This document shows, piece after piece, positions 2,558-62,576 of a stretch of 64,000 bases of DNA (position 1 is its first letter; every line of letters begins with the position of its first letter). The stretch is taken from contig JAYGCL010000079.1 of assembly GCA_046583365.1 (NCBI GenBank), positions 17,508 to 81,507 on the forward strand, given 5' to 3'. The position numbers and the translations under genes are program-made. A model generated the notes under the pieces. It was not told where the DNA came from, did not search any database, and saw nothing but the letters and a program-made list of their open reading frames with translations. This stretch comes from Deltaproteobacteria bacterium. Its GTDB lineage: Bacteria > Desulfobacterota > Binatia > UBA1149 > CAYXZP01.

Positions 2558-2559
2558 CG

Positions 2560-5085
<2,526 letters not shown>

Positions 5086-5255
5086 TTACCGGACCTTTTA
5101 TGTGGAGCCTGCAACAGCCCCCGGGGGAGCCATAAAGCTATCAAATTGGAACCTGTAAGTAAAGCAGCTAATGCCACTAAAACCCTTTAAATAAAAGGAT
5201 TTCTAGCACATCCGGGACATATTCCCGGCGACCCGAGGAAGCAGGTTCAGAGGCC

Positions 5256-6371
5256 CTATATGCGCATGGGCATGACGACGTAACGGTACCCTGGATCGTC
5301 CCCTCTGATCACCCCCGGACTCAGTTCGTCGCCGAGACCGATCTCAACCCTGGAACCTTCTGGAAGCACAGCTAAAACATCGAGGAAATAGCGGGCGTTG
5401 AACCCCACCTCTATCTCATCACCCTCATATTCCACCCCGACGTCTTCCCTGGCCTCTCCAACATCGGGGTTATTTGCGGAAATATTCATAGAACCAGCGT
5501 GCAGGGTAAGCCTTATGCCACGGGCTCTTTCACTGGATAAAATGGAAACACGGCGAATGGTCTGCAGCAATTCATCGCGCCCAACCCCCACAAGATTGGG
5601 GGTCTCTTTGGGCACTACCTGCCGATAGTCGGGAAAGGTTCCCTCAACCAGACGCATACTGAAAGTGCACGCAGACAATGAGAATGTGGCTTCGTTGCCG
5701 GCCACAGTGATGGTCACCTTCTCGGTTTCCTCGCCCAGCAGTTTGGCAACCTCAGAAAGACCCTTGCGCGGCATTATAATCCCCTCGGCCGGGGCCTCTC
5801 CCTTGATCTTTCTCTCCACTATAGCCAAGCGGTGCCCATCGGTGGCTACAGTTCTGAGGATGCCCTTCTTTTCACCACGTACCATATACACCCCGGCCAG
5901 GTTTGAGCGGGTGTCGTCTGAGGACACCGCAAATATTGTCTTACGTATGAGTTCGGCCAGGTCTCCAGGGTCAATTTCCATGGTACTGGTCTTCTCCCCG
6001 TTGTCTGGAGGTGTGGGCATCCCGGGGTGCTCGGCTGGATCCATACCGGTCAGCTTGAAGTTAGAACGACCATAGGAGACCTCGAGCCACTGGTTTTCCA
6101 TGGTCTGGATGGAAACCTCGTCACTGCCGGCTTCCCTTACGATCTCAAATAGCTTTCTGGAGGATACCGATGCGCGTCCTTCTTCCTGTACCTGGGCTTC
6201 ACACTTCTGTTTGAGCCCTATTTCCAGATCAGTGGCAATTATTTCCAGTTCTCCGTTACGGGCCTCCAACAGAAGGTTGGCAAGAACCGGCATCGAGTGG
6301 CGTTTGTCGACCACTCCCTGGGTGTGGGTGAGGATCTGGAGCAAGTTATCTTTATTGACTGTTATTTTCAT
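5256..6371 (-). CDS. dnaN: DNA polymerase III beta sliding clamp
   Basis: 371 aa, three-domain clamp. N-terminus MKITVNKDNLLQIL...PVLANLLLEA. Sits in the classical position between dnaA and gyrB. Confidence 0.93.
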   Translation of the reverse strand: MKITVNKDNLLQILTHTQGVVDKRHSMPVLANLLLEARNGELEIIATDLEIGLKQKCEAQVQEEGRASVSSRKLFEIVREAGSDEVSIQTMENQWLEVSYGRSNFKLTGMDPAEHPGMPTPPDNGEKTSTMEIDPGDLAELIRKTIFAVSSDDTRSNLAGVYMVRGEKKGILRTVATDGHRLAIVERKIKGEAPAEGIIMPRKGLSEVAKLLGEETEKVTITVAGNEATFSLSACTFSMRLVEGTFPDYRQVVPKETPNLVGVGRDELLQTIRRVSILSSERARGIRLTLHAGSMNISANNPDVGEAREDVGVEYEGDEIEVGFNARYFLDVLAVLPEGSRVEIGLGDELSPGVIRGDDPGYRYVVMPMRI

Positions 6372-6584
6372 GGGTACTTCCTATCAGTAATGTAATATCT
6401 TTCTGTTGTTTTTTTAAAGTGCACACATATGTGGATATCTATCCTAAGTTGCTGGAAAACTTATTTTTAATGCTTGTTTTGACCTGTGTGTTGGGTGTTT
6501 GCTGGCCTGCATATCTTTGTAGCAGGGCTCAGGCAAGGGTCGTTTTGTCCTCCTGACGGGGGTTTTGTGCAGGACTTATCCACA
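6372..6584. promoter_or_regulatory. Candidate oriC segment in the dnaA-dnaN intergenic region. A ~100-bp AT-rich stretch (~6380-6480, candidate DUE) is flanked by DnaA boxes TGTGGATAT (6430-6438, 8/9) and TTATCCACA (6576-6584, perfect, overlapping the dnaA stop).
   Basis: Seen directly: the stretch is about 30% GC in a roughly 66% GC window, and the boxes match the consensus TTATCCACA. Confidence 0.5.
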
Positions 6585-7967
6585 GCCCAGGGTTCGAGTG
6601 ACAGTTTCTAATACATTGCGGTAGTGGGGGTCTGCCCGCAGGCGTTTGTTGACGGCCTGGCAGGCGTGAACTACGGTGGAATGGTCGCGACCACCAAGAA
6701 AAGACCCAATGGCTGGGAATGAAGCCTCTGAGTGGTTACGCATGATGTACATGGCCAACTGCCTGGCCTCGGCTACCTTGCGGGTCCGACGGCGGGCCTG
6801 CAGTTCTCCGGGTTTAAGGCCGAAGTGCATGCTTACCCTGTTCTCGATTTCCTCCAGCGTGGGGGTTTCTGGACACTTCGCGCCCATGCTGTTGAGAAGT
6901 TCGGACGCCATGGATGTCGTTATTGCACACCGGTTTAAGGAGGCGAAGGCGCTTATGCGGGTCAGCGCACCTTCAAGGTCACGGATGTTTGAATCCACCC
7001 TGGAAGCTATCAATGTGGCGACGTCCATGGGCAGGTCGATACCCTCGTCACGGGCCCGGCGTTCGAGAATTGCCATGCGGGTTTCCACGTCCGGGTATTG
7101 GATATCAGCGACCAGACCCCACCCAAATCGGTTACACAGCCGTTCTTCCACTCCACGGATCTCGTTTGGGAACTTATCCGAGGTGAGAATGATCTGGCGG
7201 CCCCCCTGGTAGAGGCTGTTGAAGATATGAAAGAGTTCTTCCTGGGTCCTCTCCCTGCCGGCTATGAACTGTACGTCGTCGAGGATTAGCACGTCTATCC
7301 TGCGCATACGGTTCTTAAATTCCGGGGCCTTGTTGCGGGCCATGGCGTCGATCATCTGGTTGGTGAAAGTATCGGCGGTCAGAGAAAGCACACGGGTGGC
7401 CGGCGCGGCCTGTAAGATGGCATTGCCGATGGCATTGGCCAGGTGGGTTTTCCCTAGGCCGACGCCGCCAAAAAGGAAGAAAGGGTTGTAGAGGGTGCCC
7501 GGTTGTCCGGCCACAGCCATGGCTGCGGCTTTTGCAAACTGGTTACTCGCACCGACAACAAAGCTGTCAAAGTCGTAACGTTCGACCAGGCCGGAGTTCG
7601 AGAGTTGTCTACGGTGGGCCTCCTTTTGAGTCTTTAACAGATGGTCTGATTCATTGGGCTGGCCCTGTCCGTCCTGGTCTGAGAACAATTCTCCTTGCCG
7701 CGAGTGGTCCTGCCAGTTAAAGCGCAGGCGCGGTGTGTTGCCGGCCATGGCCCGCCAGGCGGCGACCAGGGTCTCGGTGTAGTGTTGTTCCACCCAGGAG
7801 GCGAACATGCGGTTCGGAACGCCGATCTCAAGCACCCCATCGCTGATGGAAAGGGGTTTCAGGGGTTTTACCCAGTTGTCGAAATCGCTGCTGCCAAGCT
7901 GCTGTCGAAGCGGCTCAACTGCCTGCTCCCACACCAGTTTCAGAGATTTTCCGGATCCTCTATCCAC
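6576..7967 (-). CDS. dnaA: Chromosomal replication initiator DnaA
   Basis: 463 aa. AAA+ Walker A GGVGLGKTHL, sensor motifs and a C-terminal HTH DNA-binding domain (AIGSFLGGRDHSTVVHACQ). Confidence 0.95.
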   Translation of the reverse strand: MDRGSGKSLKLVWEQAVEPLRQQLGSSDFDNWVKPLKPLSISDGVLEIGVPNRMFASWVEQHYTETLVAAWRAMAGNTPRLRFNWQDHSRQGELFSDQDGQGQPNESDHLLKTQKEAHRRQLSNSGLVERYDFDSFVVGASNQFAKAAAMAVAGQPGTLYNPFFLFGGVGLGKTHLANAIGNAILQAAPATRVLSLTADTFTNQMIDAMARNKAPEFKNRMRRIDVLILDDVQFIAGRERTQEELFHIFNSLYQGGRQIILTSDKFPNEIRGVEERLCNRFGWGLVADIQYPDVETRMAILERRARDEGIDLPMDVATLIASRVDSNIRDLEGALTRISAFASLNRCAITTSMASELLNSMGAKCPETPTLEEIENRVSMHFGLKPGELQARRRTRKVAEARQLAMYIMRNHSEASFPAIGSFLGGRDHSTVVHACQAVNKRLRADPHYRNVLETVTRTLGCG

Positions 7968-28335: not shown

Positions 28336-29334
28336 TCAGCCGGCCGCCGGGGCCAGCTGGTTGAGACGGTCGATGAGGGTGCGAAGGCGGCCGTAGCTTT
28401 CCATGTCGAAGTGCGTCGTCAGGCGGGTGAGTCCGTCGAGGGCCGGCTCGTCGAACTCTTCCTTGAAAACCCCTCGCTGTCGTATCGGTTGTCCGCCGAG
28501 GATGTCCGAGAACTCTTCGGACAGGCTCGCCAACGCGGTCTCCCCCAACTTTTGCGTGGTACGCAGGACCAGGCGGCGGCGGATCACGCGGGAAGAGTGG
28601 TAGCAGCGGTAGAAGTCGGTGATGTGTTGCACGGCTGTGTCGACGTTGTCGGTAATGGAGTAAAGGTTGAGGTCGGTGGGACTGATAAGGCCCCGGCCGA
28701 GGAGGTGGCGACGCACGTAGTCGTCCCAGCCCTGCCAGTAGTCTCCGCCGGGGATGTCGAGAAGGATTATGGGCATCAGTTGGGCCTTGCCGGTTTGCAC
28801 CAGGGTCAGCGTTTCAAAGCCTTCATCGTGGGTGCCGAAACCGCCGGGCAGAAGTACCACGGCCGAGGACTCTTTTAAGAAGAACAGTTTGCGGGTGAAG
28901 AAGTATTTAAAGTCCACCAGCTTGCGGTCTCCGCGGATCACCGGGTTGGCCACGTTCTCAAAGGGCAGTTTTATATTGACCCCGAAGCTGCGCTTGCGCC
29001 CGGCTCCCTGTTGGCAGGCCTCCATGATGCCGGGCCCGGCTCCGGTGATAACCATGAAGCCGGCATCGGCGATGCGCCGGGAAAAGTCGCGGGCCAGGTC
29101 ATAGATCGGCGTGTCGGGGCGAGTACGGGCCGAACCGAAGGTCGTTACCTTGCGCACCGAGGCGTAGGGACGAAAGCAGGCCAGGCCCCGGCGGATCTCG
29201 TCCATGGCCGACTCGATGAGTTTGAGGTCGGCCACCGCGATGCCGTCGTCGGCTAGGTTGAGGCAGGTCTGTATGAGCTTGGCCAGTAAGGGGCCGGTTC
29301 TGGGGTCGTCGATTTTGTCGGAAGGCTTGCCCAT
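28336..29334 (-). CDS. LOG-family protein, long form (TIGR00730 Rossmann fold with N-terminal extension)
   Basis: VTTFGSARTRPDTPIYDLARDFSRRIADAGFMVITGAGPGIMEA...LLPGGFGTHDEGFETLTLVQTGK. Confidence 0.7.
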   Translation of the reverse strand: MGKPSDKIDDPRTGPLLAKLIQTCLNLADDGIAVADLKLIESAMDEIRRGLACFRPYASVRKVTTFGSARTRPDTPIYDLARDFSRRIADAGFMVITGAGPGIMEACQQGAGRKRSFGVNIKLPFENVANPVIRGDRKLVDFKYFFTRKLFFLKESSAVVLLPGGFGTHDEGFETLTLVQTGKAQLMPIILLDIPGGDYWQGWDDYVRRHLLGRGLISPTDLNLYSITDNVDTAVQHITDFYRCYHSSRVIRRRLVLRTTQKLGETALASLSEEFSDILGGQPIRQRGVFKEEFDEPALDGLTRLTTHFDMESYGRLRTLIDRLNQLAPAAG

Positions 29335-29387: not shown

Positions 29388-30392
29388 TCAGTGGCCGTCG
29401 CGGTGTTGATTGATTTCGAGCAGTCGAAATTTCGCGCTGGGGGCGATGCCGTCACGGTCGTAGACTATCGCCTCAACGCCTGCCGCCTGGGCCACGGCCA
29501 GCCCCTTGCGGCCCGTGATCACCAGGGCCGTGGACCAGGCCTCGGCCACCGCGGCCCGTGGGGCCATTGCGGTGGCAAGGCGGGGGGGAAGAACCGGGCT
29601 TAAATTGAAAGGGTCAATGATGGGCCCAACCTCGGCTGCCGGTCCCAAGGCCTTTGAGGTTGAAAGGGCCGCGTCGTGCAGTTCGACTGCACCCAGGAGT
29701 TGCCCCGGTTGGATGCCGCCGAGGGCCACCCGCCAGGCTTTGTCCCCTCTGGTCCGCCCGAGGGCCATGTGGCTGGAACCGCCGAAGTCGGCAAAGGCCC
29801 CGCGTGCGCCTTTGGATTTTAAAAAATCCACGATCTTGTCCAGGGCCAGGCCTTTGCCTATGCCACCGGCGTCCAGACGGACCCCGGGCAGGAGGGAGGC
29901 TGTGGGACGGGCTCCCTTTGCGCCTTCGAGGGTAAGGGCGGTTTGCAGACTCAAGGCTCCGCGCAAGGCCGCGCGTTCGAGCGTGTGCAGGTCGGCGGCG
30001 GTTGGAGTTTTGTGTTGCCGCCATAAATCCACGGCTGGCCCCAGGGCCGGGTCAAAGGTGGCCTTGGTGGCTTGGGCCAGGTCTTTCATTGTCGCCAGGG
30101 CCCAGGCCAGGTCCGGGCTTATGGCTACGGCTCCACTGCCGGCCTTGAGGTTGAGCCGTTCCAGCTCCCCTTCGGGCCGCCAGGTGGTAAGCACGTCGTC
30201 CCAGTGCCGGGCGATTGCAATACAAGCCTGGGCCAGACGGTCGGCTTCCTCGCCGGTGGCGGCCACCACTTCGACTTGCAAGACGGTGCCCATGACGGCC
30301 GCCGCCGCCTTTGCCGAGGCAGCGCCGGCGGCTGTGGCCGGGGCCGCCAGGACAAACAGAAGAAATACCAGCGCCGGCAGCGCTCGCGTCAA
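29388..30392 (-). CDS. apbE: FAD:protein FMN transferase
   Basis: Signal peptide, and an ApbE fold with LDAGGIGKGLALDK and a C-terminal Mg/FAD-binding region. Confidence 0.8.
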   Translation of the reverse strand: MTRALPALVFLLFVLAAPATAAGAASAKAAAAVMGTVLQVEVVAATGEEADRLAQACIAIARHWDDVLTTWRPEGELERLNLKAGSGAVAISPDLAWALATMKDLAQATKATFDPALGPAVDLWRQHKTPTAADLHTLERAALRGALSLQTALTLEGAKGARPTASLLPGVRLDAGGIGKGLALDKIVDFLKSKGARGAFADFGGSSHMALGRTRGDKAWRVALGGIQPGQLLGAVELHDAALSTSKALGPAAEVGPIIDPFNLSPVLPPRLATAMAPRAAVAEAWSTALVITGRKGLAVAQAAGVEAIVYDRDGIAPSAKFRLLEINQHRDGH

Positions 30393-30395
30393 CTC

Positions 30396-30917
30396 TCAGT
30401 CCCCGTTCTCGCCGTTACTGTTGGACGGGCCGTAAGCGCTTGGCAGTTCGAAGAGCAGGGCCCGGGCCACCAGTATTACCAGGATGGCAATCACGCCCTG
30501 CAGGAGCAGGAACATGGAGATTTTCATCCAGGCAAACCCCGGATGCACAAAGCGTACGCCCCAGCCGGCCAACTCGCCGCCCATGCCGGCGCCGAAGGCA
30601 AGGGCGATACCCCAGGCCTTGATACGCATGGAAATCGGTACAAACAGGGTCAGGTGGGTGAGCGTAAGCAGCAGGATGCCCATGGCAAAACTGTGGAAGT
30701 GGAGCATTTCCAGCAGCCCGACAAAGCTGCGGGGCTGCAGGTAGAGTTCTTCGTTGCCGAGGTAATAGTCGATTACCGAAGCCGGGTTGAGGCTCATCTT
30801 TGAAAAGTAAAGACCGATGTTGGTCAGCCACAACACCACCGTGTAGGCCAGGAAACACCACACGATCATTTTGAGTAGACGGTTTTTGGTCCACTCTCCG
30901 GTTACTACGAAACGCAT
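30396..30917 (-). CDS. 4-TM integral membrane protein with conserved His in TM helices, possibly DUF4405/cytochrome-b-like
   Basis: Four predicted TM helices. Histidines sit inside hydrophobic segments (EMLHFHSFAMG, LTLTHLTLF). Lies between the FMN-binding gene and apbE. Confidence 0.5.
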   Translation of the reverse strand: MRFVVTGEWTKNRLLKMIVWCFLAYTVVLWLTNIGLYFSKMSLNPASVIDYYLGNEELYLQPRSFVGLLEMLHFHSFAMGILLLTLTHLTLFVPISMRIKAWGIALAFGAGMGGELAGWGVRFVHPGFAWMKISMFLLLQGVIAILVILVARALLFELPSAYGPSNSNGENGD

Positions 30918-30929
30918 GACTATAACGGC

Positions 30930-31493
30930 CTAATCGTTGTCGGTTGGGGAGGCGGCGATGACTTCTTCATAAACCGCCAGCGCGCGGCCCACGGCGGAGA
31001 CCACGGCCCGCGAACTCAACGTCGAGCCGGTTACGGCGGCCAGGTCGCGGCCTATACGCAGGCCACTGCCCAGGCGCTTGCCCTTGAGTTGCTCCAACCA
31101 ACGCGCGCTCGGCAAGTATTCCAACGGCTCGTAGAAGGCAAGGACGTACACGGCACGTACCCGCCCGTCCGGGGAGAGGACGGTCAGGAAAGCCTCGGGG
31201 AGGGTGCGTACGATGTGGGTGTCGAGCAAGGCATAGCCGAGGGGTTCGTCTTGTTTGTAGCCGCTGTAGACTTTTATCAGGTCCGAATCGAGTCTGGTTC
31301 TGGCCGCGGCCTCGATTCGTTGGTGCTGGTCGGGACTAAGAAACAGCGTTGTCGTCTCGGTACGGGTGGCCTCGGGAAAGGCCAGGGCCGGCACCTCATC
31401 AAGTGAGTAGAAAACCGTTGCCGCGGCTTGGCCCGGGCAGGCCAGGCCGCAGGCAACAACCAGAGTGAGGCAAGGTTTCAGGAATGCTGGCAT
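30930..31493 (-). CDS. FMN-binding domain lipoprotein, likely an ApbE flavinylation substrate
   Basis: Lipobox LVVAC, and FMN_bind flavinylation motif GRDLAAVTGSTLSSRAV near the C-terminus. Confidence 0.65.
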   Translation of the reverse strand: MPAFLKPCLTLVVACGLACPGQAAATVFYSLDEVPALAFPEATRTETTTLFLSPDQHQRIEAAARTRLDSDLIKVYSGYKQDEPLGYALLDTHIVRTLPEAFLTVLSPDGRVRAVYVLAFYEPLEYLPSARWLEQLKGKRLGSGLRIGRDLAAVTGSTLSSRAVVSAVGRALAVYEEVIAASPTDND

Positions 31494-31507: not shown

Positions 31508-32797
31508 CTAGAAGATGTAGCCGGCTCCCAGACGGACCTCGTCGGAGGGGTCGGCGCCGCTTTTGTCGCTCCAGTCACGGTAGTCGAGTTTCACGACTAC
31601 ATTGGGAATCGGCTTGTAGGTCAGGCCCACTTCGACCACAGAGCGGTCTTTGTCCTTGTTGGCCGTGTAGCCGGTGGGTACAGTGGCCTGGCTGTCCAGC
31701 GTGGAATAGCGGACCCAGGGGGCCAGGTACTGGCCGCTGTCGGCGGCCAGCAGGGGCATGACGTCGTAGGCCGCCTCCAGGTACCAACCGGTCATCTTCT
31801 CGGCCACCGACTTGCCGGTGTCGTCTTTGTATTTGGCCCGGCTCAAAATGTCGGCGTCGTCCAGGTCTACCGATATGCCCAGGGCTCTGAGCTCCAGGCC
31901 TTTGGACTTCCACTGGATGTGGCCTTCAAACATTTCCATCTTTGCATCCGGGCTGCCCAGGGCGCTGCCATTGTCGGCATCCGTCAGGGCTACGTCCTGG
32001 CCCTGGTCGCCCAGGTAGGCCGAGCCGCCAAGGCTCAGACCGGGGACCGGGGTGTAGTCGATGCGGGTTACCCAGGACCAGTCGTTGGACTTTTCCTTGG
32101 AGCCTTTCTGCCGTCCGCTACGGAGGTTGCTCTCGCTGAACTCGCTGCCCAGCAGGCTTGTCACCAGGTAGGAGCGGTAGCTGAGGCCGGCAAAGGGTTG
32201 GCCGAACAGCCCCACACCGTTGGCCTGCCAGGTGGACGGGATTAACTGTCTCTCCACCGTCGGCCTCATATTGCCGTGGTAGAAAGGCGGTTCGTGCATC
32301 TCGTTGATGAAACCGACCGGAACCAGCATAAGGCCGGCGCGGGCGTTTACGGCTTCGTTAAACATAAAATCCAGGTAGGCGAATTCCACCGACACCGTGC
32401 CGTTGTCGTCGGTGGCGTGCTCGAATTCGATTTCGCTGTTCATGATGATCCAGTCGTTAAATTTGTAACCGAAGTACAGGACAAAACGGTAGAAGTCGGT
32501 TATGTCGTCTTCGCCGGCATCCTCGTAGTTGGCGTAGTTGAACTCGCCGTAGCCGCCTATCGAGAGGCCCCGCTCTTTTGAGTAGACCTTGGATGCGGCC
32601 GGACCCATCCCGTAGGCGCTCTTGAGTTCCCTGGTTTCCGGCAGGACCTGGGCTTCTTTGAGGGTTGCCAACTCTCCGGCCAACACGTCGATGCGGCGTT
32701 CAAGCTCGTCGATTTTGCCGGCGCCGCTGGCCGCCGCCGGCCCGGCCAGCAAGGCCACGAGCAGGGCCAGGGCCAGGGCTTTGTTGTAAGCGTTCAT
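31508..32797 (-). CDS. Outer-membrane beta-barrel porin with N-terminal coiled-coil segment
   Basis: Signal peptide and a heptad-like ELERRIDVLAGELATLKEAQ. Alternating amphipathic strands, and a C-terminal ...GAGYIF aromatic terminus typical of OM barrels. Confidence 0.55.
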   Translation of the reverse strand: MNAYNKALALALLVALLAGPAAASGAGKIDELERRIDVLAGELATLKEAQVLPETRELKSAYGMGPAASKVYSKERGLSIGGYGEFNYANYEDAGEDDITDFYRFVLYFGYKFNDWIIMNSEIEFEHATDDNGTVSVEFAYLDFMFNEAVNARAGLMLVPVGFINEMHEPPFYHGNMRPTVERQLIPSTWQANGVGLFGQPFAGLSYRSYLVTSLLGSEFSESNLRSGRQKGSKEKSNDWSWVTRIDYTPVPGLSLGGSAYLGDQGQDVALTDADNGSALGSPDAKMEMFEGHIQWKSKGLELRALGISVDLDDADILSRAKYKDDTGKSVAEKMTGWYLEAAYDVMPLLAADSGQYLAPWVRYSTLDSQATVPTGYTANKDKDRSVVEVGLTYKPIPNVVVKLDYRDWSDKSGADPSDEVRLGAGYIF

Positions 32798-32833
32798 GCG
32801 TAAGGTTCTCCGTGGGTAGTTCCAGTCTTAGTT

Positions 32834-32855
32834 GATTTTGATTATGATTATCAAT
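32834..32855. promoter_or_regulatory. Fur-box-like hexamer repeat GATTTTGATTATGATTATCAAT in the porin/exbB divergent promoter
   Basis: Seen in the sequence. It is the reverse-complement form of the (GATAAT)n arrangement of the Fur consensus GATAATGATAATCATTATC, inside an AT-rich island between two divergently transcribed operons. Confidence 0.35.
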
Positions 32856-32949
32856 TTCGGTTACTGAGTCAATAAGGCTCCTCCCTCCCCTCCTTCCAGC
32901 CCCCTGTCCGGCTTGCATTGGAGCCGTGGCACGGAGTTTATAGCCGCCT

Positions 32950-33630
32950 GTGGGAGTGACGGAATTTTTCGACCAGTCAGGCCCTCTGGGCCTCGTTTTA
33001 CTGCTGCTGTCGGTGCTGGCCCTGGCCATCATCATTACCAAGACCCGTCATTTCGTCCGCCTGAGAGTGAGAAATCTGGCCTTTGGCGACCAGGCGCTTG
33101 CAGCTCTGGCCGGCGGCGACATTGACGGGGCCCGGACCCTCATGGCCGCCAGTCCCAACCCGGTTGCCCGGGTGATGGAGGCACTGGTGGAACACTACGC
33201 CACCGACGGCCAGGCCCTGGCGGGGGGAGACGCCGAAGTTGAGCGTCGGGGCGAGGCCGAACTGCGAGAGATGGAAACCTGGCTGCGTCCCCTGGCCACG
33301 GTTGCCCACCTGAGCCCGTTGGTGGGATTGCTGGGTACCGTGTTCGGCATGATCCGGGCCTTCATGGCCATAGAGGCGGCCGGCTCCCGTGTTGACCCCG
33401 GCCTGCTCGCCGGCGGCATCTGGGAGGCCCTGCTGACGACGGCTTTCGGCCTGGCCATTGCTATTCCCTCTCTGGCCGCCTTTCACTTCTTTGAGGGTGA
33501 GATAGAGCGGGTCCGTGCCGCCATGAAAGATGTAACGGTAAGACTCATGGCTGCCTGTGGGGTCGAACCTGCAAGTTCGGCTGCTTTTGCGACCCTGCCG
33601 GCGGCCGAACGTGAAGACTATGCGGTTTGA
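32950..33630 (+). CDS. exbB: MotA/TolQ/ExbB proton channel protein
   Basis: 3-TM topology with the conserved LGLLGTVFGMIRAF...AFGLAIAIP. Confidence 0.8.
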   Translation: MGVTEFFDQSGPLGLVLLLLSVLALAIIITKTRHFVRLRVRNLAFGDQALAALAGGDIDGARTLMAASPNPVARVMEALVEHYATDGQALAGGDAEVERRGEAELREMETWLRPLATVAHLSPLVGLLGTVFGMIRAFMAIEAAGSRVDPGLLAGGIWEALLTTAFGLAIAIPSLAAFHFFEGEIERVRAAMKDVTVRLMAACGVEPASSAAFATLPAAEREDYAV

Positions 33631-34018
33631 ACGCCGCGCCACCCCGGTTGCGCGGCTCAGTCTGGCTCCCCTGATAGACGTTGTTTTTCTATTGCTGATT
33701 TTTTTCATGTTGACCAGCAGCTTTCTGGAAACCCAGGCCATCGAATTTGACTTGCCCGCCTCGGCCACTGCCGAGGCGACCCGGCCGACGGACCTGGTGG
33801 TCTCGGTCAGCCGTGGGGGGGGATTTGGAATTGACGGTCGGCTTCTGGAGACCCCGGCCTTCAAAAAAGAGTTGGCCGCGCGCCTCGGCAGCAATGGTCC
33901 TGGCGTGCTCGTTCTAAGCGACCGCGATGTCAGTGTTGAGAGGGTGGTTGCCGTCATGGATATGGTCCGTCAGGCCGGTGGCCGGGAGGTTTCCCTGGCC
34001 ACCCGTCCAGCCAACTGA
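33620..34018 (+). CDS. exbD: Biopolymer transport protein ExbD/TolR
   Basis: LAPLIDVVFLLLIFFM TM helix with the conserved Asp, plus a periplasmic domain. Start moved to MRFERR. Confidence 0.8.
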   Translation: MRFERRATPVARLSLAPLIDVVFLLLIFFMLTSSFLETQAIEFDLPASATAEATRPTDLVVSVSRGGGFGIDGRLLETPAFKKELAARLGSNGPGVLVLSDRDVSVERVVAVMDMVRQAGGREVSLATRPAN

Positions 34019-34022
34019 ACCC

Positions 34023-34631
34023 ATGGCGCCCCCACGGCCGAGCTTTGCCCTTTCCCTGGCCCTGGCTGTAGCCGTTCATGTGGGGGCCTTTGCCTTTCTC
34101 ACCCCCGGCCCGAGCGACCTGCCGGCCTACCGGCCCAGCCCTCCGGTCGTTTTGAGAGGGGAACTTTCCCCCCGCGATTCGGCACCACCCCACCCCGACC
34201 CTGACCCTGCCAGCCTCGGGCAAAGCCAACCGCAGCGGGGCCGCGCCCGTACTACGGCGGCACAGGTGGCGGTGGCCCCGATGGCGGCGGTCCGCGAGCA
34301 CGGCTCCGGCGATGAGGCCCTCATCGGCTACCAGTCTCTGCTGGCAGCCTGGTTGGAACGTTACAAACGCTACCCCGCAGCTGCCCTGCGCCGCCGTATA
34401 GAGGGCCGGGGTCTGTTGCAGGTGAGCATAGACGGCCGCGGTAACCTTCGCAGCAGCCGCCTGCTCGAGGGGCTGTCCTCGCCTATTCTTGACCAGGCCG
34501 TCCTCGACCTGGCCCGCCGTGCTTCCCCCTTTCCACCCCCGCCGGCCGGGGATGGTCATTACGAGTTTACGGTGCCGGTTGAGTTTCGACTGGGCCGCTC
34601 TTTGCCGTCCCCGCCGCTTTCGTCGCGGTAG
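34023..34631 (+). CDS. tonB: TonB-family energy transducer
   Basis: N-terminal TM helix, Pro-rich spacer, and a TonB_C domain (YPAAALRRRIEGRGLLQVSIDGRGNL...LDQAVLDLA). Start moved to MAPPRPSF. Confidence 0.6.
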   Translation: MAPPRPSFALSLALAVAVHVGAFAFLTPGPSDLPAYRPSPPVVLRGELSPRDSAPPHPDPDPASLGQSQPQRGRARTTAAQVAVAPMAAVREHGSGDEALIGYQSLLAAWLERYKRYPAAALRRRIEGRGLLQVSIDGRGNLRSSRLLEGLSSPILDQAVLDLARRASPFPPPPAGDGHYEFTVPVEFRLGRSLPSPPLSSR

Positions 34632-35860
34632 GCTGAGGCCAGCAACTCTATGGGGTGGGTCACCTCGATGGCAAGGCCCTGGAGGGCAAAGGCCCTTTCC
34701 AATTGCAGCAGACAGCCGAGGTTGGCCACGGCCACGCTGCCGGCATCCTTGCCTTCGGCAAGACGGGCCTTGTCGGCTCCCAGACGTTCGGCCATGGCCG
34801 GGTGGTCGAGGTTATAACTGCCCGCGCTGCCACAACAGATCTGGTTGTCGCCCAGATCTTCCACCGCGCTCCCGGTTGCGGCCTCGACCAGGGCCCGTGG
34901 TGCCTGGCTTATCCCCTGGGCGTGTACGAGGTGACAGGCGTCGTGGTAGAGAACCGGCCCGTTGGTGTTGGCCAGGGGCCGGGGACGTTCGAAACCTTCT
35001 TCGAACAACAGTTCGCAAATGTCACGGGTCCTGGCCGACAGCGCCGCTGCTGCCGCCGAGAGTCCATCGTCAGGGTCATCGGCAAACAAGCGGTCGTAGT
35101 CCTTGAGCATGGCCCCACAGCCGGCGCTGGTACTGACAACGAAGTCGGCACCGCCCAGAACCTCGATGTTTTTGCGGGCCAGGGCTCGGGCTTCTTTTTT
35201 ACGGCCACCGTGAAGGGCCAGGGCCCCACAGCAGCCCTGGGCGGGAACTTCCAGGACATCAAAGCCGTTGCGGCGCAGTACCTCGACGGCCGCCTGGTTC
35301 GTCTGGGGGCGCAGCAGGGGGGCCACACAGCCCTCAAGCAAAACCACACGGGGGCGCTTGGCAGCCGTAGCCACAGGCCGGGCCGGCAGGGTTGGGGCCA
35401 GGTCGTTGCCGTTACGGGGCATCAGCGACAGCCCGGGCAGACGGCGGCGCAGGTGGCCCAGCCCCATGCGGTCCAGAGCGCGGGCCGTGGCCAGGGCCGC
35501 GGCCATGAGGGGGCGGTTGGTTGTTAGCACCAACACCAGGGTCTTCCATAGAGCCTTAAGAGGTCGGTGCCGGGGAGCGCTTATGAGGGGGCGGAAAGTT
35601 TCAATCCGCCGGCCGAAGTCCACTCCCGAAGGGCAGGCACTCTCGCAGGCCAGGCAACCGAGGCAGCCGTCGAGGTGGGCGGCCGCTTCATCATCGAGGG
35701 ACAACTGGCCGGCGGTGATCGCTTCCATCAGGTAGATGCGTCCCCGTGGCGAGTCGGCCTCGGTGCCCAGCTGTCTGTATGTGGGACAGTGGTCGAGGCA
35801 GAGTCCGCAGTGGACACAGGGCAGGCCGATGTCGGCCGGGTTGTCGATGGCCGGGTTCAC
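34559..35860 (-). CDS. glcF: Glycolate oxidase iron-sulfur subunit
   Basis: Two 4Fe-4S ferredoxin motifs (CVHCGLCLDHCP, CLGCLACESACP) and two CCG cysteine-rich domains. Confidence 0.8.
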   Translation of the reverse strand: MNPAIDNPADIGLPCVHCGLCLDHCPTYRQLGTEADSPRGRIYLMEAITAGQLSLDDEAAAHLDGCLGCLACESACPSGVDFGRRIETFRPLISAPRHRPLKALWKTLVLVLTTNRPLMAAALATARALDRMGLGHLRRRLPGLSLMPRNGNDLAPTLPARPVATAAKRPRVVLLEGCVAPLLRPQTNQAAVEVLRRNGFDVLEVPAQGCCGALALHGGRKKEARALARKNIEVLGGADFVVSTSAGCGAMLKDYDRLFADDPDDGLSAAAAALSARTRDICELLFEEGFERPRPLANTNGPVLYHDACHLVHAQGISQAPRALVEAATGSAVEDLGDNQICCGSAGSYNLDHPAMAERLGADKARLAEGKDAGSVAVANLGCLLQLERAFALQGLAIEVTHPIELLASAYRDESGGDGKERPSRNSTGTVNS

Positions 35861-37104
35861 AGTCCCCCTACAAACCTTCCCGGCGAGAGCACCCGGTCGG
35901 GGTCGAAACGCTCCTTGATGCGTTTCATAAGTTCAAAACCCTGGGGCCGTTGGTCCCACACCTGCAGCCCCTCCTTGACCTCGGCCGTGGCTCTTAGGAC
36001 CACCGCGCCGGTGGCAAAGCCGGTGGCAAGCCGGCGCAGGCCGTCGACAAGGTCGGCCGCGGCCTGGGTGTCGGTTGTCGAGATGCACAGCAAACCGCTG
36101 CCCAGATGTCCGCTTACCCTGAGGCCGCCCGGACTGTGGTGGCTTAAATGGTCAAGGACTTTGGCAGCAAAGGCCAGGGCCTGGGCCGGTTTCAAGGCGA
36201 CCTCTACGGCCAGGGTTTCCTCATCCATGGGGTGGACGGGAGAATGCCAGGGCTCGGTGGAAACAGAGACCTGGCGGCGACACAGGGAAGTGATGCCTTC
36301 GATCTGGTAATCGACCTCACTGCGGGTGCCTTCGACGCAGGCCAGCAGGGTCCAGGGCGTTTGCTGGGGGGTAACGGTAAAGTCCAGTGCGGCCAGGGGC
36401 AGTGATGAGGCGAAAACAGCCCGCCTGGCCTCTCCCAGTTCTTTGTCGCTGGGGAATTCACACACCACCGTGGCCCGGGTATGGGCCAGGGGGTGGGTGC
36501 GCAGGGTGACCTCGGTTATGACGGCGAGGGTACCCAGGGAACCGCAAAAAAGCCGCGGCAGGTCGTAGCCGGAAACGTTTTTTACAACCTTGCCCCCGCA
36601 GGCAAAATAGCGGCCGCTCCCGTCGACCACCCTCAACCCCAACACCATGTCGCGGCAGGCTCCAAAGCCGTAGGCCAGACCGCCACTGGCGCCCGTTGCC
36701 ACCAGGCCACCCAGGGTCGCACGTTCGGGGTGGGCCGGGTCCAGGGCCACCCTCTGACCGGTCTGTTCCAGGCTGCGGTTGAGACGGGCCAGGTTGACAC
36801 CGGCGCCTGCCGTCACCGTCAGGTCCTCGCTGCGTTGTTCGATGATATCGGCCATGCCGGTGGTTTGCAGACGCAGGTCGAAGGCTTCTGGTATCGCACC
36901 CGCACCGAGCTGGCTGCCCCCGCCGGTGGTAACAATGGCCAGGCGGTTTTCCCGGGCCGCCTGCACCACGGTAAGGACGTCTTCAAAAGTGCGGGCCGTG
37001 ATCACGTGGCCGGGGGTAATGCCGTCTATAGAGTCCTCGCTGCGTCCGCTGCGGGCCTGGCCGGGACCAAACGAAGCGGTTACGGCCGCTATGTCGTGGT
37101 CCAT
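35857..37104 (-). CDS. glcE: Glycolate oxidase FAD-binding subunit
   Basis: FAD_binding_4 domain. Translationally coupled between glcD and glcF. Confidence 0.75.
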   Translation of the reverse strand: MDHDIAAVTASFGPGQARSGRSEDSIDGITPGHVITARTFEDVLTVVQAARENRLAIVTTGGGSQLGAGAIPEAFDLRLQTTGMADIIEQRSEDLTVTAGAGVNLARLNRSLEQTGQRVALDPAHPERATLGGLVATGASGGLAYGFGACRDMVLGLRVVDGSGRYFACGGKVVKNVSGYDLPRLFCGSLGTLAVITEVTLRTHPLAHTRATVVCEFPSDKELGEARRAVFASSLPLAALDFTVTPQQTPWTLLACVEGTRSEVDYQIEGITSLCRRQVSVSTEPWHSPVHPMDEETLAVEVALKPAQALAFAAKVLDHLSHHSPGGLRVSGHLGSGLLCISTTDTQAAADLVDGLRRLATGFATGAVVLRATAEVKEGLQVWDQRPQGFELMKRIKERFDPDRVLSPGRFVGGL

Positions 37105-37107
37105 GCT

Positions 37108-38559
37108 CTAACCCCCTCCCCGCGGTCGTGGGCGCGTGACTTCCACACAAACACGGTTGTCGGGGAACACCTTGCCGGGGTTACAACGGCCGTCGGGGTT
37201 GAAGGCCTCTTTGACATCGGCCATAGCCTCGATGGCCTCATTGCTGAATGCCGCCGGCATGAGGTCGATCTTTTCAATGCCGATGCCGTGCTCGCCGGTT
37301 ACCGAGCCACCAAGTTCGAGACAGGCCTCGAGGATTTCCCTTCCGGCCGCCAGTACTCTTTTTATCTCTTCATCGTTCTTGTCGTCGTACAAAACCAGGG
37401 GGTGAATATTGCCATCCCCGGCGTGGGCCAGGGTTGCAATCTTCAAAGAGTATTTATCGGCCACCTGGGCAATTTTTTCGACGATGTCAGCCATGCGTGA
37501 ACGGGGTACCACCCCGTCCTGAGTACAATAGCTCGGGGCTAGGCGTCCCATCGCGCCGAAGGCCCGCTTGCGCGACTTCCACAGCAGTTGTCTTTCTTTC
37601 TCGTCGGCCATTCGTCTTACCTGGCTGGCACCGGCCCGGTGGCAGGCTTCTATTATACGGTCGCCGGCCTCGTCGAGACCGGCTTTGAGACCGTCGAGTT
37701 CGATGATCAGGACCGCGCCGGCCTCGCGGGGGAAACCAAAATGGTAGGCCTCCTCGACCGCCTCTATGACCATGGCGTCCATCATTTCCAGGGCCGCAGG
37801 AATGATACCGGCCGCGATGATGGCAGAAACAGCCCGGCTGGCTTCGACGACGGAGGGGAAAACGGCCAGCAGGGTGGACACCCCTTCGGGTTTTACCAGC
37901 AACCTCAAGGTGGCGGCCGTTATGATGCCGAAGGTACCCTCCGAACCCGTGGCCAGACCGGCCAGGTCGTAGCCCGTCCCGGTGGCCCCGCCGGCAGAAG
38001 CGGCGGCGGCGGGGCGGGTGAGGTTGACAACTTCGCCGTTGGCCAGAACCATTTCTATGGCCAGCAGATGGTTTACCGTCACCCCGTATTTCAAGGTATG
38101 GGGCCCCCCCGAGTTTTCTGCAATGTTGCCGCCTATCGTGCAGGCCGACTGGCTGGAAGGGTCGGGGGCATAATAGAGTCCGTGGGCAGAGACCTGGCGG
38201 CTCACTTCGAGGTTTACCACTCCGGCTTCAACTTCCACCGTGCGGTTTTCGACGTCGATCGAGCGGACCCGCTTCATGCGGCTGGTGCCTATCATCACCG
38301 GAATTTCCAGGGGCAGGCAGCCCCCCGAAACTCCGGTGCCGGCCCCGCGGGGGACAAAGGGCAAGTCGGCCTGGGCCAGTATGGCGAGTACGCGGCTCAC
38401 CTGTTGGGTAGAGTCCGGCAACAGCACCAGTTCGGGGCGGGCCCGCTCGAGCGTGTAGCCGTCGCACTCGTAGACCTTAAGAGCGGCCTGGCCGGTGACA
38501 AATCCCTCGCTGCCGACCACGTGTTTGAGGCGGCGTTTTATTCTTCCACTGAGAGGCAA
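37108..38559 (-). CDS. glcD: Glycolate oxidase subunit GlcD (FAD-linked oxidase)
   Basis: FAD_binding_4 domain, and the C-terminal HAGDGNIHPL motif typical of GlcD/D-lactate dehydrogenases. Confidence 0.85.
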   Translation of the reverse strand: MPLSGRIKRRLKHVVGSEGFVTGQAALKVYECDGYTLERARPELVLLPDSTQQVSRVLAILAQADLPFVPRGAGTGVSGGCLPLEIPVMIGTSRMKRVRSIDVENRTVEVEAGVVNLEVSRQVSAHGLYYAPDPSSQSACTIGGNIAENSGGPHTLKYGVTVNHLLAIEMVLANGEVVNLTRPAAAASAGGATGTGYDLAGLATGSEGTFGIITAATLRLLVKPEGVSTLLAVFPSVVEASRAVSAIIAAGIIPAALEMMDAMVIEAVEEAYHFGFPREAGAVLIIELDGLKAGLDEAGDRIIEACHRAGASQVRRMADEKERQLLWKSRKRAFGAMGRLAPSYCTQDGVVPRSRMADIVEKIAQVADKYSLKIATLAHAGDGNIHPLVLYDDKNDEEIKRVLAAGREILEACLELGGSVTGEHGIGIEKIDLMPAAFSNEAIEAMADVKEAFNPDGRCNPGKVFPDNRVCVEVTRPRPRGGG

Positions 38560-59001: not shown

Positions 59002-60159
59002 GTGTTTACACAGATGCCACCGGGGACCCTCCCCTCCAGCCAGACTGCGATATCCCCCGTAGAGGAGATCATCGAGGAACTGAGGGTGGGCCGTATGGTC
59101 ATCCTCATGGACGATGAGGATCGCGAGAACGAGGGCGACGTGGTGGTGGCGGCGGAAAAAGTCACCGTCGACCAGATCAATTTCATGCTCAAGCATGCCC
59201 GCGGTCTCATCTGCATGCCGATGTCGGAAGAGCGCCTCAAGGCGTTGGGCCTGCGCATGATGGTGGCCGAGAATACGTCTCCCCTGGGGACCGCGTTTAC
59301 CGTATCGATAGATGCGGTGGCCTGCCAGGGCACCGGCATGTCGGCCAGGGACCGCACCACAACCATACGTACGGCGGCTGGCGACGATGCTGCCGCCAGG
59401 GATTTTGTCGTTCCCGGACACGTTTTTCCCCTGCGCGCCCGCGACGGCGGGGTGTTGGTAAGGACGGGACAGACCGAGGGGACTGTAGACCTTTGCCGCT
59501 TGGCCGGGTTGAAGTCGGCCGGGGTTATTTGCGAGATTTTGAACGAGGACGGGACAATGGCCCGTCTTCCGGAAATCGTCAGGTTCGCCGGCCTTCACGG
59601 CCTCAAGATTGGAACGGTTGCCGATATTATCCAGCACCGCCTTGAAAACGAGTCTCACGTCAGCTGTGTCGCCACGGCGAGGTTGCCGACGAAATTCGGC
59701 GGCGATTTCACAGTTCACATCTACCATTCGAGCGTCGAAGAAGGCGAGCACACGGTGTTGGTAAAGGGCGAGATCGACCCCGACCGTCCGGTGCTCGTTC
59801 GTGCCCATGCCGAGTATCTTCCCGGCGACGTGTTTGCCTATACCCACAGAAACACGCGCGGGGTGCTGCACTCGGCCATGAGGATGATTGCCGAGGAAGG
59901 CGCGGGTGTGATTCTCTACGTGCGCCGCCGTGGGCGTGGTGCCGAGATTCTGGCCGAGGACACTGATGCGCCGGCCAGCACCAACCCTGCGGCCCGGCTC
60001 GCCAACTTCAAGGATTACGGTATCGGTGCCCAGATTCTGCGTGACCTTGGTGTACGCAAAATCCGCCTGCTCACGAACTCCCCGCCGCGTTTTGCCAACA
60101 TCGGGGGCTATGGCCTTGAGGTTGTCGAGGTTGTGGCCGTAGAACCTATCGATACGTAA
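59002..60159 (+). CDS. ribBA: RibBA-like protein: DHBP synthase domain fused to a GTP cyclohydrolase II-like domain that lacks the zinc-binding cysteines
   Basis: RibB half has RENEGDVVVAAE and PGHVFPLRA, but TGQTEG where characterised enzymes have GHTE. In the RibA half, RAHAEYLPGD and AYTHRNTRG replace the Cys-containing SEC-LTGD and LRCDCG motifs. Confidence 0.75.
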   Translation: MFTQMPPGTLPSSQTAISPVEEIIEELRVGRMVILMDDEDRENEGDVVVAAEKVTVDQINFMLKHARGLICMPMSEERLKALGLRMMVAENTSPLGTAFTVSIDAVACQGTGMSARDRTTTIRTAAGDDAAARDFVVPGHVFPLRARDGGVLVRTGQTEGTVDLCRLAGLKSAGVICEILNEDGTMARLPEIVRFAGLHGLKIGTVADIIQHRLENESHVSCVATARLPTKFGGDFTVHIYHSSVEEGEHTVLVKGEIDPDRPVLVRAHAEYLPGDVFAYTHRNTRGVLHSAMRMIAEEGAGVILYVRRRGRGAEILAEDTDAPASTNPAARLANFKDYGIGAQILRDLGVRKIRLLTNSPPRFANIGGYGLEVVEVVAVEPIDT

Positions 60160-60715
60160 CTACGAGGTAGTGGGTGTTGAGCCCCGAATTGGCCTCGGCC
60201 CAGAGGCCGGCGTGCGATATGTGGCGCAGACGGTAACCGAGGGACCAACGGTGGGGGTCGGCGGCGCCAAAAGTCACGCCCCCGCCTATCTGGTCGCTGA
60301 ACAGGATTCGCGAGCCGAGGTTGTAGCCACGCAGGTCCGAGTAGGCCAGACCCACGCCGCCTTCCACGAAGGGACGAATGCTGCGGTCTCTAAAGCCCTC
60401 GACCCTGACCATGGGAACCACCGAGAACTCCACGGTTTCGGTATCCTTGGTGGTAAAGCCCAACAGGGGTTCGACCACCAGGGACAGGTCGAGGCCGTAG
60501 GGTTCGGTTGCCCGCTCGACCGCGGCCGGGGGTTGGAAGGAGAAACGCCAGCCGATGGCGTAGGTGACCAGGTTGCGGCCGCCCTGCTTGTGGGAGTAGC
60601 CCACGGCCAATATGGGTCCGTTGGTTCGGGCCTGGTCGACGGTTTGGGTCTGGCCGACGGCTGGCAGCAGGAGCAGGGCCAGGACCAGCAGAGCTTTGGC
60701 TGTGAGTGTATCCAT
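60146..60715 (-). CDS. PagL-like outer-membrane acyloxyacyl hydrolase/lipid A deacylase family protein
   Basis: Signal peptide, small beta-barrel, and a C-terminal RHISHAG...SGLN resembling the PagL His/Ser catalytic region. Confidence 0.5.
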   Translation of the reverse strand: MDTLTAKALLVLALLLLPAVGQTQTVDQARTNGPILAVGYSHKQGGRNLVTYAIGWRFSFQPPAAVERATEPYGLDLSLVVEPLLGFTTKDTETVEFSVVPMVRVEGFRDRSIRPFVEGGVGLAYSDLRGYNLGSRILFSDQIGGGVTFGAADPHRWSLGYRLRHISHAGLWAEANSGLNTHYLVVTYR

Positions 60716-60800
60716 CGCGCTGGTGCTTAGCCGTCGGCCGGGGCACTGGCAAACGGGCTACTCGCAAATCCGACCGGGCTCGGCTAGCGTCCGAACTGCT

Positions 60801-62576
60801 GTGTTTTTAATCCCTGGCCGTTGGACCAAGGCGGTTCTTGCCGGTGCGGCCGTATTCGCTGCGGTCACGCTCGTGGGCGCCCTGCCGACCAGTGCGGCCG
60901 ATGAGCCCGTGGTTGCACGCGTTCGGGTACTACCGGCTACGGTGGCCGGGGGCGATGCCGCCGCGGTCACCGTCGAGATCGAGATCGCCGAGGGTTGGCA
61001 CATCAACAGCAGCCAGCCGGGGCCGGAGTTTCTCATCCCCACCCGTTTGGACTTCGAACTGCCCCCCGGTTTCACCGCCGGCCAGACAGTTTACCCCGGT
61101 GCCGTCAGCCGCCGTCTCAAGGTGGCCGGCAACCGTGAGTTCAACTTCTACGAGGGTAAAATCCTGCTCAGTACCCAACTGCGCTATGCACCGGTCGACG
61201 ACCGCAAAGGCGACGGTCCCGGACGACCGCTGGCGGTGCTCAGTTACCAGGCTTGTAGCGATACGCTATGCCTGAGGCCGGCCAGCATGAGGCTTGCCCT
61301 GGACCTGGAGTTTGCGTCGGCCGCCGCCACCACCCCGCCCCGAGCCGGACCCGGCCAGGATTCGGCGGGGGCGATTGCGCGGATGGTTGGTGGCGGTCTG
61401 TGGGTGGTGATTCCGGGCATGCTGCTTTTCGGACTGGCTCTGAATCTCACCCCCTGCGTGTATCCTCTTATCTCGGTGACGGTGGCCTATTTCGGCCGCC
61501 AGGCCGGGGGCAGTCCCCGCCGCCGTTTAGTCCTGGCCCTGGCCTACAGCCTGGGAATAGCGGTGACATTTTCTGCCCTTGGGGTCAGTGCGGCGCTGTC
61601 GGGATCCTTCTTCGGCAAGGCCCTGGCCAACCCTATGGTGTTGGTGGGGGTGGCCGCCTTGATGGTGGCCCTTGCCCTGTCCTGTTTCGGCCTCTACCAG
61701 ATCCGTGTTCCCGAGGTCGTCAATTCACGACTGGGGCGGGCCGCCGGTGGCGTCTTCGGCTCCCTGTTCATGGGCATGACCATGGGCGTGGTGGCCGCAC
61801 CTTGCGTGGGACCGGTGGTGGTCGGTTTGCTGATGTTTGTAGGCAGCCGCGGTGACGTGGGGCTTGGGCTGGGTCTGTTCTTTCTGTTGGCGCTCGGGCT
61901 GGGCCTGCCCTACGTGGTCCTGGCCATGGCCGCCGGTTCTCTGGACCGCCTGCCTCGGGCCGGCGACTGGCTGCAGTGGACCGAACACCTGTTCGGTTGT
62001 GTACTGTTGGCGGCGGCTCTGTATTTCGTGGGTCCCCTTCTCCCCGACAAGCTCAGTGGTGTAGCGATGCCGGTCTATCTGGCTCTGGCGGTGTTATACT
62101 TGGCCTTTTTCGACCCCGTCGGACGTCGGCACCGGGTTTTCCGCCTCCTGAGGGCGGTGGCCGGGACCGCCGCCCTGGCGGCGATTGCGGTCGTATACAT
62201 CCCTCAATCCGGGTCCCATGGGGCCCTTTCCTGGCAGCCTTTCTCCGATGAGGCCCTGGCCGTGGCCAAGGCCAGTGGCCGGCCTTTTGTTATCGAGTTC
62301 GGGGCCGATTGGTGTCTGCCCTGCAAGGAGATGGAAGAGCGGACCTTTACCGACCCCGCCGTCCTCGGGCAGGCCCAGGGGGTATTGTTCATAGAGGTGG
62401 ACATGACGACCTCTACAGGCTACACGGACCTTGTCTTGAAACGCTTCGACGTGCTCGGAGCGCCTACCACCCTGTTTTTCGATTCCGATGGCAAAGAGGC
62501 CGCCAGAAGGATAGGCTTTATAGGTCCGCAAGACTTTCGCGACCTGCTCGTAGAGACAACACGTGTCGGCGGATAG
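60801..62576 (+). CDS. dsbD: Thiol:disulfide interchange protein DsbD
   Basis: N-terminal DsbD-alpha-like domain, a central CcdA-like TM domain, and a C-terminal thioredoxin with WCLPC. GTG start at 60801 gives a signal peptide and removes the overlap with the PagL-like gene. Confidence 0.75.
   Translation: MFLIPGRWTKAVLAGAAVFAAVTLVGALPTSAADEPVVARVRVLPATVAGGDAAAVTVEIEIAEGWHINSSQPGPEFLIPTRLDFELPPGFTAGQTVYPGAVSRRLKVAGNREFNFYEGKILLSTQLRYAPVDDRKGDGPGRPLAVLSYQACSDTLCLRPASMRLALDLEFASAAATTPPRAGPGQDSAGAIARMVGGGLWVVIPGMLLFGLALNLTPCVYPLISVTVAYFGRQAGGSPRRRLVLALAYSLGIAVTFSALGVSAALSGSFFGKALANPMVLVGVAALMVALALSCFGLYQIRVPEVVNSRLGRAAGGVFGSLFMGMTMGVVAAPCVGPVVVGLLMFVGSRGDVGLGLGLFFLLALGLGLPYVVLAMAAGSLDRLPRAGDWLQWTEHLFGCVLLAAALYFVGPLLPDKLSGVAMPVYLALAVLYLAFFDPVGRRHRVFRLLRAVAGTAALAAIAVVYIPQSGSHGALSWQPFSDEALAVAKASGRPFVIEFGADWCLPCKEMEERTFTDPAVLGQAQGVLFIEVDMTTSTGYTDLVLKRFDVLGAPTTLFFDSDGKEAARRIGFIGPQDFRDLLVETTRVGG

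Follow-up and report, generated by a model that had tools for sequence, protein, structure and literature searches.

Described systems related to the locus analysed here include: (i) the Fur regulon of delta-proteobacteria, for which a dFUR box of the form wTGAAAATnATTTTCAw is reported (Rodionov et al. 2004, PMC545781), (ii) a porin, 'psp', which is weakly similar to PF07396, has Aquifex homologues and is a predicted Fur target in Geobacter and Desulfuromonas (PMC545781), (iii) flavinylation-linked membrane cytochromes b (PepSY, MsrQ, DUF4405 and FezC), which have links to iron assimilation and Fur (PMC8238504, PMC11334425), and (iv) ApbE-associated iron-reductase clusters (PepSY-like), for which Fur repression has precedent (Meheust et al. 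2021, PMC8238504). A literature search returned nothing specific on the four-gene module described below or on a Fur regulon of Binatota, the phylum in which UBA1149, HRBin30 and UTPRO1 are orders (PMC8262859). The flavin-based iron-uptake module that appears to be under control at this locus is probably undescribed.

The window, i.e., the whole 64-kb stretch of DNA that was analysed, includes a hexamer repeat in the spacer between a minus-strand operon (porin, FMN_bind, Aq_1264_TM and ApbE) and a plus-strand exbB-exbD-tonB cluster (Table 1). This repeat is very likely the Fur operator of the minus-strand operon, as judged by its match to known operators and its conservation in related genomes. 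The original prediction had read the repeat as GATTTTGATTATGATTATCAAT at 32834-32855, and the letters of the window at these positions are exactly those. The complete element extends further, to 32858, and consists of GATTTT, GATTAT and GATTAT followed by C and AATTTC. The spacer that hosts it is 152 bp long (32798-32949) and separates the ATG of the porin-like gene from the GTG of exbB. It had been described as an AT-rich intergenic region of 150 bp between divergent operons; the divergent arrangement and the length hold to within 2 bp, while the AT-richness is limited to the immediate surroundings of the element. The GC content is 0.44 at 32800-32899 and 0.57 in the exbB-side half (32850-32949), compared to 0.61 for the window. 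A pyrimidine tract (32878-32905; G-rich when read on the minus strand) separates the two putative promoters and is not conserved in the related loci L001 and L002. No Rfam family of structured RNA reaches threshold anywhere in the window.

Table 1. Coordinates of the predicted operator, promoter elements and genes on both sides of the divergent spacer.
Feature	Position	Strand	Remarks
Fur operator (predicted)	32834-32858	.	four GATwwT-type hexamers, equivalent to two overlapping 19-bp boxes with a 6-bp shift
Core 17-mer	32838-32854		TTGATTATGATTATCAA
7-1-7 unit	32839-32853		TGATTAT-g-ATTATCA
-35 of putative porin promoter	32867-32872	-	TTGACT; consensus scan
-10 of putative porin promoter	32844-32849	-	AATCAT; consensus scan; 17-bp spacing; at the centre of the Fur box and of the 7-1-7 unit
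exbB promoter-like layout	32913-32942	+	TTGCAT (32913-32918), 18 nt, TTTATA (32937-32942), 7 nt, GTG
exbB	32950-33630	+	MotA_ExbB, E 8e-28; GTG start
exbD	33557-34018	+	ExbD, E 2e-26; coordinates of the ORF
tonB	33927-34631	+	TonB_C, E 1e-13; coordinates of the ORF
porin	31508-32797	-	first gene of the operon; Porin_O_P, E 0.005, below cut-off
FMN_bind protein	30930-31493	-	E 1e-4; secreted, possibly lipidated
Aq_1264_TM (PF27139)	30396-30917	-	173 aa; four-helix membrane protein
ApbE flavin transferase	29388-30392	-	E 4e-41; last conserved gene of the module
LOG/lysine-decarboxylase-like gene	28336-29334	-	53 bp downstream of the ApbE gene

The element is the single outstanding match in the window under each of three independent descriptions of a Fur site: the E. 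coli consensus, a matrix of published sites and a matrix of the lineage itself. The consensus GATAATGATAATCATTATC is matched twice on the minus strand, at 32834-32852 and 32840-32858, with 16 of 19 positions agreeing in each box and a displacement of 6 bp; when up to three mismatches are allowed, no further match is found in the window and none in 100 dinucleotide shuffles. Scoring with Fur matrices of the relevant taxa, the check proposed with the original prediction, places the element above background. The matrix built from 54 published Fur sites of Geobacter, Desulfuromonas and Desulfovibrio (PMC545781, Table 3) gives 24.6 bits for the core 17-mer, compared to a training median of 22.0 and to maxima in 200 Markov-shuffled windows that average 12.9 and reach 19.8 at most. 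The lineage matrix gives 28.1 and 24.9 bits for the two boxes, within its training range of 21.9-32.2, and the next best match in the window scores 18.5. The next-best candidates, at 18-19 bits, were judged to be probably due to chance: 6355-6371, where the match covers the start codon of dnaN at the AT-rich dnaA-dnaN spacer, and 1308-1326, which falls within gyrA. These genes belong to a row of gyrA, gyrB, dnaN and dnaA on the minus strand (95-7967) that is probably the replication origin region, with a DnaA-box-like ATATCCACA in the AT-rich dnaA-dnaN spacer (6372-6575).

The lineage matrix derives from loci that were collected by a porin-alignment scan of species-representative genomes. The scan yielded 80 loci, 30 of high GC content and about 50 from Methylococcales; the high-GC loci are MAGs labelled Binatia, UBP10, HR30, UTPRO1, Myxococcales or Deltaproteobacteria. 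Gibbs sampling was run without a Fur prior on 31 high-GC upstream regions that did not include the window, and it returned ATTTTGAnAATCATTTTCA as the motif of highest information (19.6 bits), present in about 22 of the 31 regions. By its pattern, ATTTTGAnAATCATTTTCA is the delta-proteobacterial Fur box wTGAAAATnATTTTCAw. With a matrix built from 19 of these de novo sites, the high-GC loci (370 kb in all) contain 34 clusters that score 20 bits or more; 23 of them lie within the 3% of sequence directly upstream of the porin, an enrichment that is partly circular as most of these 23 sites are also in the training set. A further five of the 34 clusters lie between fur and ApbE in loci ordered fur, ApbE, porin, FMN_bind and membrane protein. 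As the porin-proximal sites largely trained the matrix, cleaner tests are provided by the window, by loci outside the training set and by the matrix of published sites. In all, the motif precedes the module in about 25 related Binatota-like genomes, with or without an adjoining exbB.

The untrained loci place the motif at genes of iron metabolism. In L081, one site of 28.5 bits lies immediately before FMN_bind, Aq_1264_TM and ApbE, and a FUR gene is located 6.5 kb upstream. In L082 and L083, sites of 24-32 bits precede bfd-ferritin, a cytochrome c-FTR1 fusion that follows fur, and the porin, and no other site above 22 bits is found in these two loci. The gene order in both (L082 10001-16195; L083 4116-10902) is bfd, ferritin, fur, cytochrome c-FTR1 fusion, porin, FMN_bind, Aq_1264_TM and ApbE, and the fusion joins two cytochrome c domains to an FTR1 iron permease. 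Sites of the lineage type also precede ferritin in L009 and both feoB and ferritin in L042, two loci whose porin-upstream sites are in the training set and which are, therefore, less independent. Lineage sites of 21-32 bits are also seen at L008 (~9340), L012 (~6964) and L057 (~3021), where they adjoin genes of no obvious iron role (rhomboid, bestrophin-like) or unannotated ORFs.

The Methylococcales loci (L016-L080) have a different upstream palindrome, GCAAATnAnAATCATTTGC, which occurs in 37 of 45 upstream regions and in 7 of 1509 control windows, a very large contrast for a pattern that was derived from the same set in which it was counted. The palindrome occupies positions of roughly -171 to -234 relative to the start of the porin gene and appears to be a Fur-like palindrome of the gamma type, unlike the Binatota-type motif. 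The module is testable in cultured Methylobacter, since orthologues of Methylococcales carry GCAAATnAnAATCATTTGC.

A consensus scan of the spacer finds one sigma-70-like promoter, TTGACT-17-AATCAT, which is directed toward the porin operon and agrees with the consensus at 9 of its 12 positions, the -10 being weak. Its layout implies a transcription start near 32837 and a leader of about 40 nt. In eight of nine divergent spacers (the window and its eight closest loci), a TTGAC(A/T) element precedes the box centre by 21-31 bp; L013 has none. The predicted box over the putative -10 is the classical geometry of occlusion. Because the motif is conserved before the module and recurs at iron genes and at fur, Fur repression of the porin/flavoprotein operon is well supported as a prediction. 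In the proposed switch, two Fe(II)-Fur dimers would occupy the overlapping 19-bp boxes when iron is sufficient, and the bound Fur would cover the -10 and the start site and keep RNA polymerase out; under iron scarcity, Fur would be released and the operon transcribed. The porin may then let iron species into the periplasm, where the protein carrying FMN, covalently attached by ApbE, may alter the redox state of the iron. The flavoprotein would receive its electrons via the small membrane protein with its conserved histidines, and this step would precede an inner-membrane iron permease.

The gene calls on which the original prediction was built (porin, FMN, ApbE and exbB-exbD-tonB) stand up to Pfam comparison, the porin match being weak and below threshold. 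The porin has a signal peptide and is modelled with an N-terminal helix and a 16-strand barrel similar to OmpC/OmpF without a plug (model pLDDT 72.8); Foldseek relates the model to OmpC, OmpF and OmpM1 (E 1e-13 to 1e-15). The protein is 100% identical to the database entry VCA74_08300, from a MAG labelled 'Deltaproteobacteria bacterium', and belongs to a family of thousands of members, many labelled Candidatus Binatia; an exact-sequence look-up of the porin gave no match, the identical entry being a cluster representative. Judged by its nearest homologues, the window probably comes from a Binatota-like lineage. The FMN_bind protein has a signal or lipoprotein-like N-terminus and an ApbE flavinylation motif, TGST, at about residues 156-159, and the motif [ST]G[AS]T is retained in all FMN_bind orthologues. 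Thus, the locus pairs an ApbE with a secreted substrate that has a flavinylation motif (TGST/SGAT), as is expected of ApbE-dependent extracytosolic flavinylation. Elsewhere in the window, ribBA, of riboflavin synthesis, and a gene for a DsbD-type thiol:disulfide transporter (59002-60159 and 60612-62576) are loosely relevant to periplasmic flavin and redox, and no Fur site is found near them.

The third gene, Aq_1264_TM, is the most conserved of the module, with 63-71% identity in most Binatota-type loci, 49-55% in loci led by fur-ApbE and 44-53% in Methylococcales. Residues H73, H75 and H88 are invariant and H125 is nearly so. Aq_1264_TM has no Pfam match (E <=0.01) to PepSY, MsrQ, NapH, DsbD, NqrB/RnfD-like or DUF4405 families. 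H73 and H88 lie on the same helix with a separation of 15 residues, so the protein may bind haem as a homodimer in the manner of FezC; a small haem-binding electron conduit is a possible function. The gaps among the four module genes are 3-14 bp, and the genes are therefore very probably on one transcript. The LOG-family gene is possibly co-transcribed with them here; in other loci it is unlinked to the module. The block of porin, FMN_bind and the 173-aa protein is kept in nearly all loci, and ApbE follows in most Binatota-type loci. Analogy with the flavinylation-linked cytochromes b and the gene context (FTR1, feoB, ferritin and fur) point to the module as, most likely, a periplasmic flavin-based system of iron redox and uptake. 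A more specific proposal is made tentatively: the module (dedicated porin, covalently flavinylated periplasmic protein, Aq_1264_TM and ApbE), which is common to Binatota and Methylococcales and in many cases linked to fur and a cytochrome c-FTR1 permease, would be an uncharacterised iron-acquisition module, and Aq_1264_TM would be a membrane cytochrome b of a new type, which would pass electrons to the periplasmic flavoprotein for the redox processing of iron.

On the other side of the spacer, the genuine start codons of exbD and tonB probably lie downstream of where their ORFs open. The tonB ORF converges on a glycolate-oxidase-like glcD/glcE/glcF operon (34559-38559, minus strand), and its 3' end (34631) overlaps that of the glcF-like ORF (34559) by about 70 bp; a plus-strand ORF of 290 aa in this operon (34655-35527) is a shadow of the glcF-like gene. 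Seven of the eight relatives with a divergent spacer keep the TTGCAT/TTTATA layout ahead of exbB, and L013 has a related variant. The layout suggests that exbB has a promoter of its own and a very short leader or none at all, i.e., a leaderless or near-leaderless mRNA; the layout is regarded as a candidate because the consensus scan did not report it. A plus-strand promoter overlapping the box was sought and set aside, as the scan returned none and the -35 candidates are poor by eye. A sigma-54 promoter for exbB was likewise rejected: TGGCACG at 32927-32933 resembles a -24 element, but no -12 GC follows and the sequence is absent in L001 and L002. Neither this locus nor the set of large ORFs tested yields a TonB-dependent receptor, and one may lie elsewhere in the genome.

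Operators of the Fur family look alike, those of the paralogues included, and the site could in principle serve another member of the family (Zur, PerR, Mur or Irr-like), or an unrelated protein that binds TGA-N9-TCA, with a signal other than iron. The window has no fur gene within its 64 kb, whereas Fur homologues are abundant in the lineage. Genes for fur lie beside the orthologous module in L046, L049, L052, L071, L074, L082 and L083 as well as at the distance noted above in L081. The Fur of L081 retrieves about 2,600 homologues, several of them on contigs equal in length to contigs with porin or Aq_1264_TM hits; same-contig linkage to the module is confirmed only in L081-L083, and the locus-tag prefix VCA74 is not among the 120 homologues listed. 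The Fur-family proteins that adjoin the module score best against Fur equivalogs (1e-33), ahead of PerR (1e-23) and Zur (1e-16); all of these scores are below the curated cut-offs, which leaves some room for a paralogue. In Bacillus subtilis, the half-site distinguishes the regulators, with TGAT for Fur, TTAT for PerR and TCGT for Zur. The half-sites of the window are TGAT...ATCA, the Fur form, rather than those of PerR or Zur. A regulator other than Fur is rendered quite improbable by these half-sites, by the best match of the adjacent regulators to Fur and, in the same lineage, by the occurrence of the motif before the feoB, ferritin, bfd and FTR1 genes, all of which are iron-specific. Still less probable, to the point of being hardly credible, is that the repeat is a chance or structural feature of an AT-rich promoter (a slippage repeat or an UP-like element) with no dedicated regulator. 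Slippage can yield hexamer repeats and GC-rich genomes do have locally AT-rich promoters; however, shuffled sequence has no comparable match, the motif recurs before unrelated iron genes, and the orthologous sites vary in their letters while their palindromic consensus and their placement with respect to the -35 are preserved. The site scores, the iron genes that the motif precedes and the neighbouring regulators that match Fur best together identify the motif as the putative iron-responsive Fur operator of the lineage. The designation of the repeat as a Fur box in the original prediction is thus strongly supported by the matrix scores, by conservation before orthologous operons and by the occurrence of the motif at feoB/ferritin/bfd/FTR1 and fur in relatives.

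Given Fur as the regulator, the extent of its control at the spacer is a separate matter. The original prediction placed both divergent operons in the iron regulon, a view that is retained for the porin operon, where the box overlies the -10 and follows the module into loci without exbB, and is not borne out for exbB, as the box lies off the promoter layout of that gene. One Fur operator serving both operons, with exbB-exbD-tonB iron-repressed via the same site, is unlikely here, even though many bacteria have TonB systems under Fur, one example being a Desulfovibrio pqqL/foxR cluster with exbB-exbD-tonB (PMC545781). Eight related loci likewise have exbB divergent from the porin operon, and the distance from the box centre to the exbB start codon is constrained to 85-109 bp in all nine divergent spacers, both of which are as expected of a shared operator. 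Among the 80 loci, however, the divergent exbB-exbD-tonB is found only in these eight closest ones, and the box accompanies the porin/FMN_bind module in loci without exbB; thus, the presence of the box needs no appeal to exbB. The position of the box in the nine divergent spacers is also unfavourable: as seen from exbB it lies past the porin -35, and 53-77 bp separate it from the conserved TTGCAT element. These spacers have no second site of at least 8 bits, and the scan returns no plus-strand promoter over the box. With this geometry, and with the box occurring where no exbB is near, Fur control of exbB is possible but unsupported.

A Fur operator is in itself textbook regulation, and the value of this one is as an anchor. 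It gives Binatota, an uncultured phylum, a first predicted Fur motif that can be tested, and it assigns a role in iron limitation to a conserved, unstudied four-gene module shared by Binatota and cultivable methanotrophs (Methylobacter and relatives). It also sets right what would be easy to assume, namely, that the TonB system next to it is under the same site.

Compared to Fur-controlled TonB-ExbB-ExbD systems, the locus has all three domains directly beside a Fur box; by contrast with those systems, the box does not overlap the exbB promoter-like layout, and no TonB-dependent receptor is found in the locus. The classical Fur box of E. coli and Bacillus, GATAATGATAATCATTATC, is shared at 16 of 19 positions twice over, with the -10 overlap that is the usual geometry of repression, and the 7-1-7 unit of the window differs from the ideal TGATAATnATTATCA at one of 14 positions. 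The middles of the hexamers in the window are TT or TA and not AA as in the classical box, and the lineage consensus TGAAAAT/ATTTTCA is the better fit. The likeness to delta-proteobacterial Fur boxes is closer, as these have the same 17-bp palindrome: the D. vulgaris gdp site TTGAAAATCATAATCAA, when reverse-complemented, departs from the core TTGATTATGATTATCAA at a single position. Desulfovibrio Fur sites can similarly consist of two overlapping boxes shifted by 6 bp (PMC545781), and delta-proteobacterial boxes have the promoter-proximal placement that is seen in the window. Unlike the species of that study, the host here appears to be a Binatota-like uncultured lineage, and the flavinylation genes of the operon are outside its coverage (PMC545781).

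The controlled genes have counterparts as well. Like psp of Geobacter metallireducens and Desulfuromonas, the porin of the window is weakly similar to PF07396 and has an upstream Fur box; psp has Aquifex homologues, and the family next to the window porin is named after Aquifex aq_1264. The porin may belong to the psp family. With the ApbE iron-reductase clusters, the operon has in common an ApbE, a secreted [ST]G[AS]T flavoprotein, a small histidine-bearing membrane protein and linkage to iron genes. It differs from these clusters in its membrane partner, PF27139, which by sequence belongs to none of their described classes, and in the dedicated porin that leads the operon.
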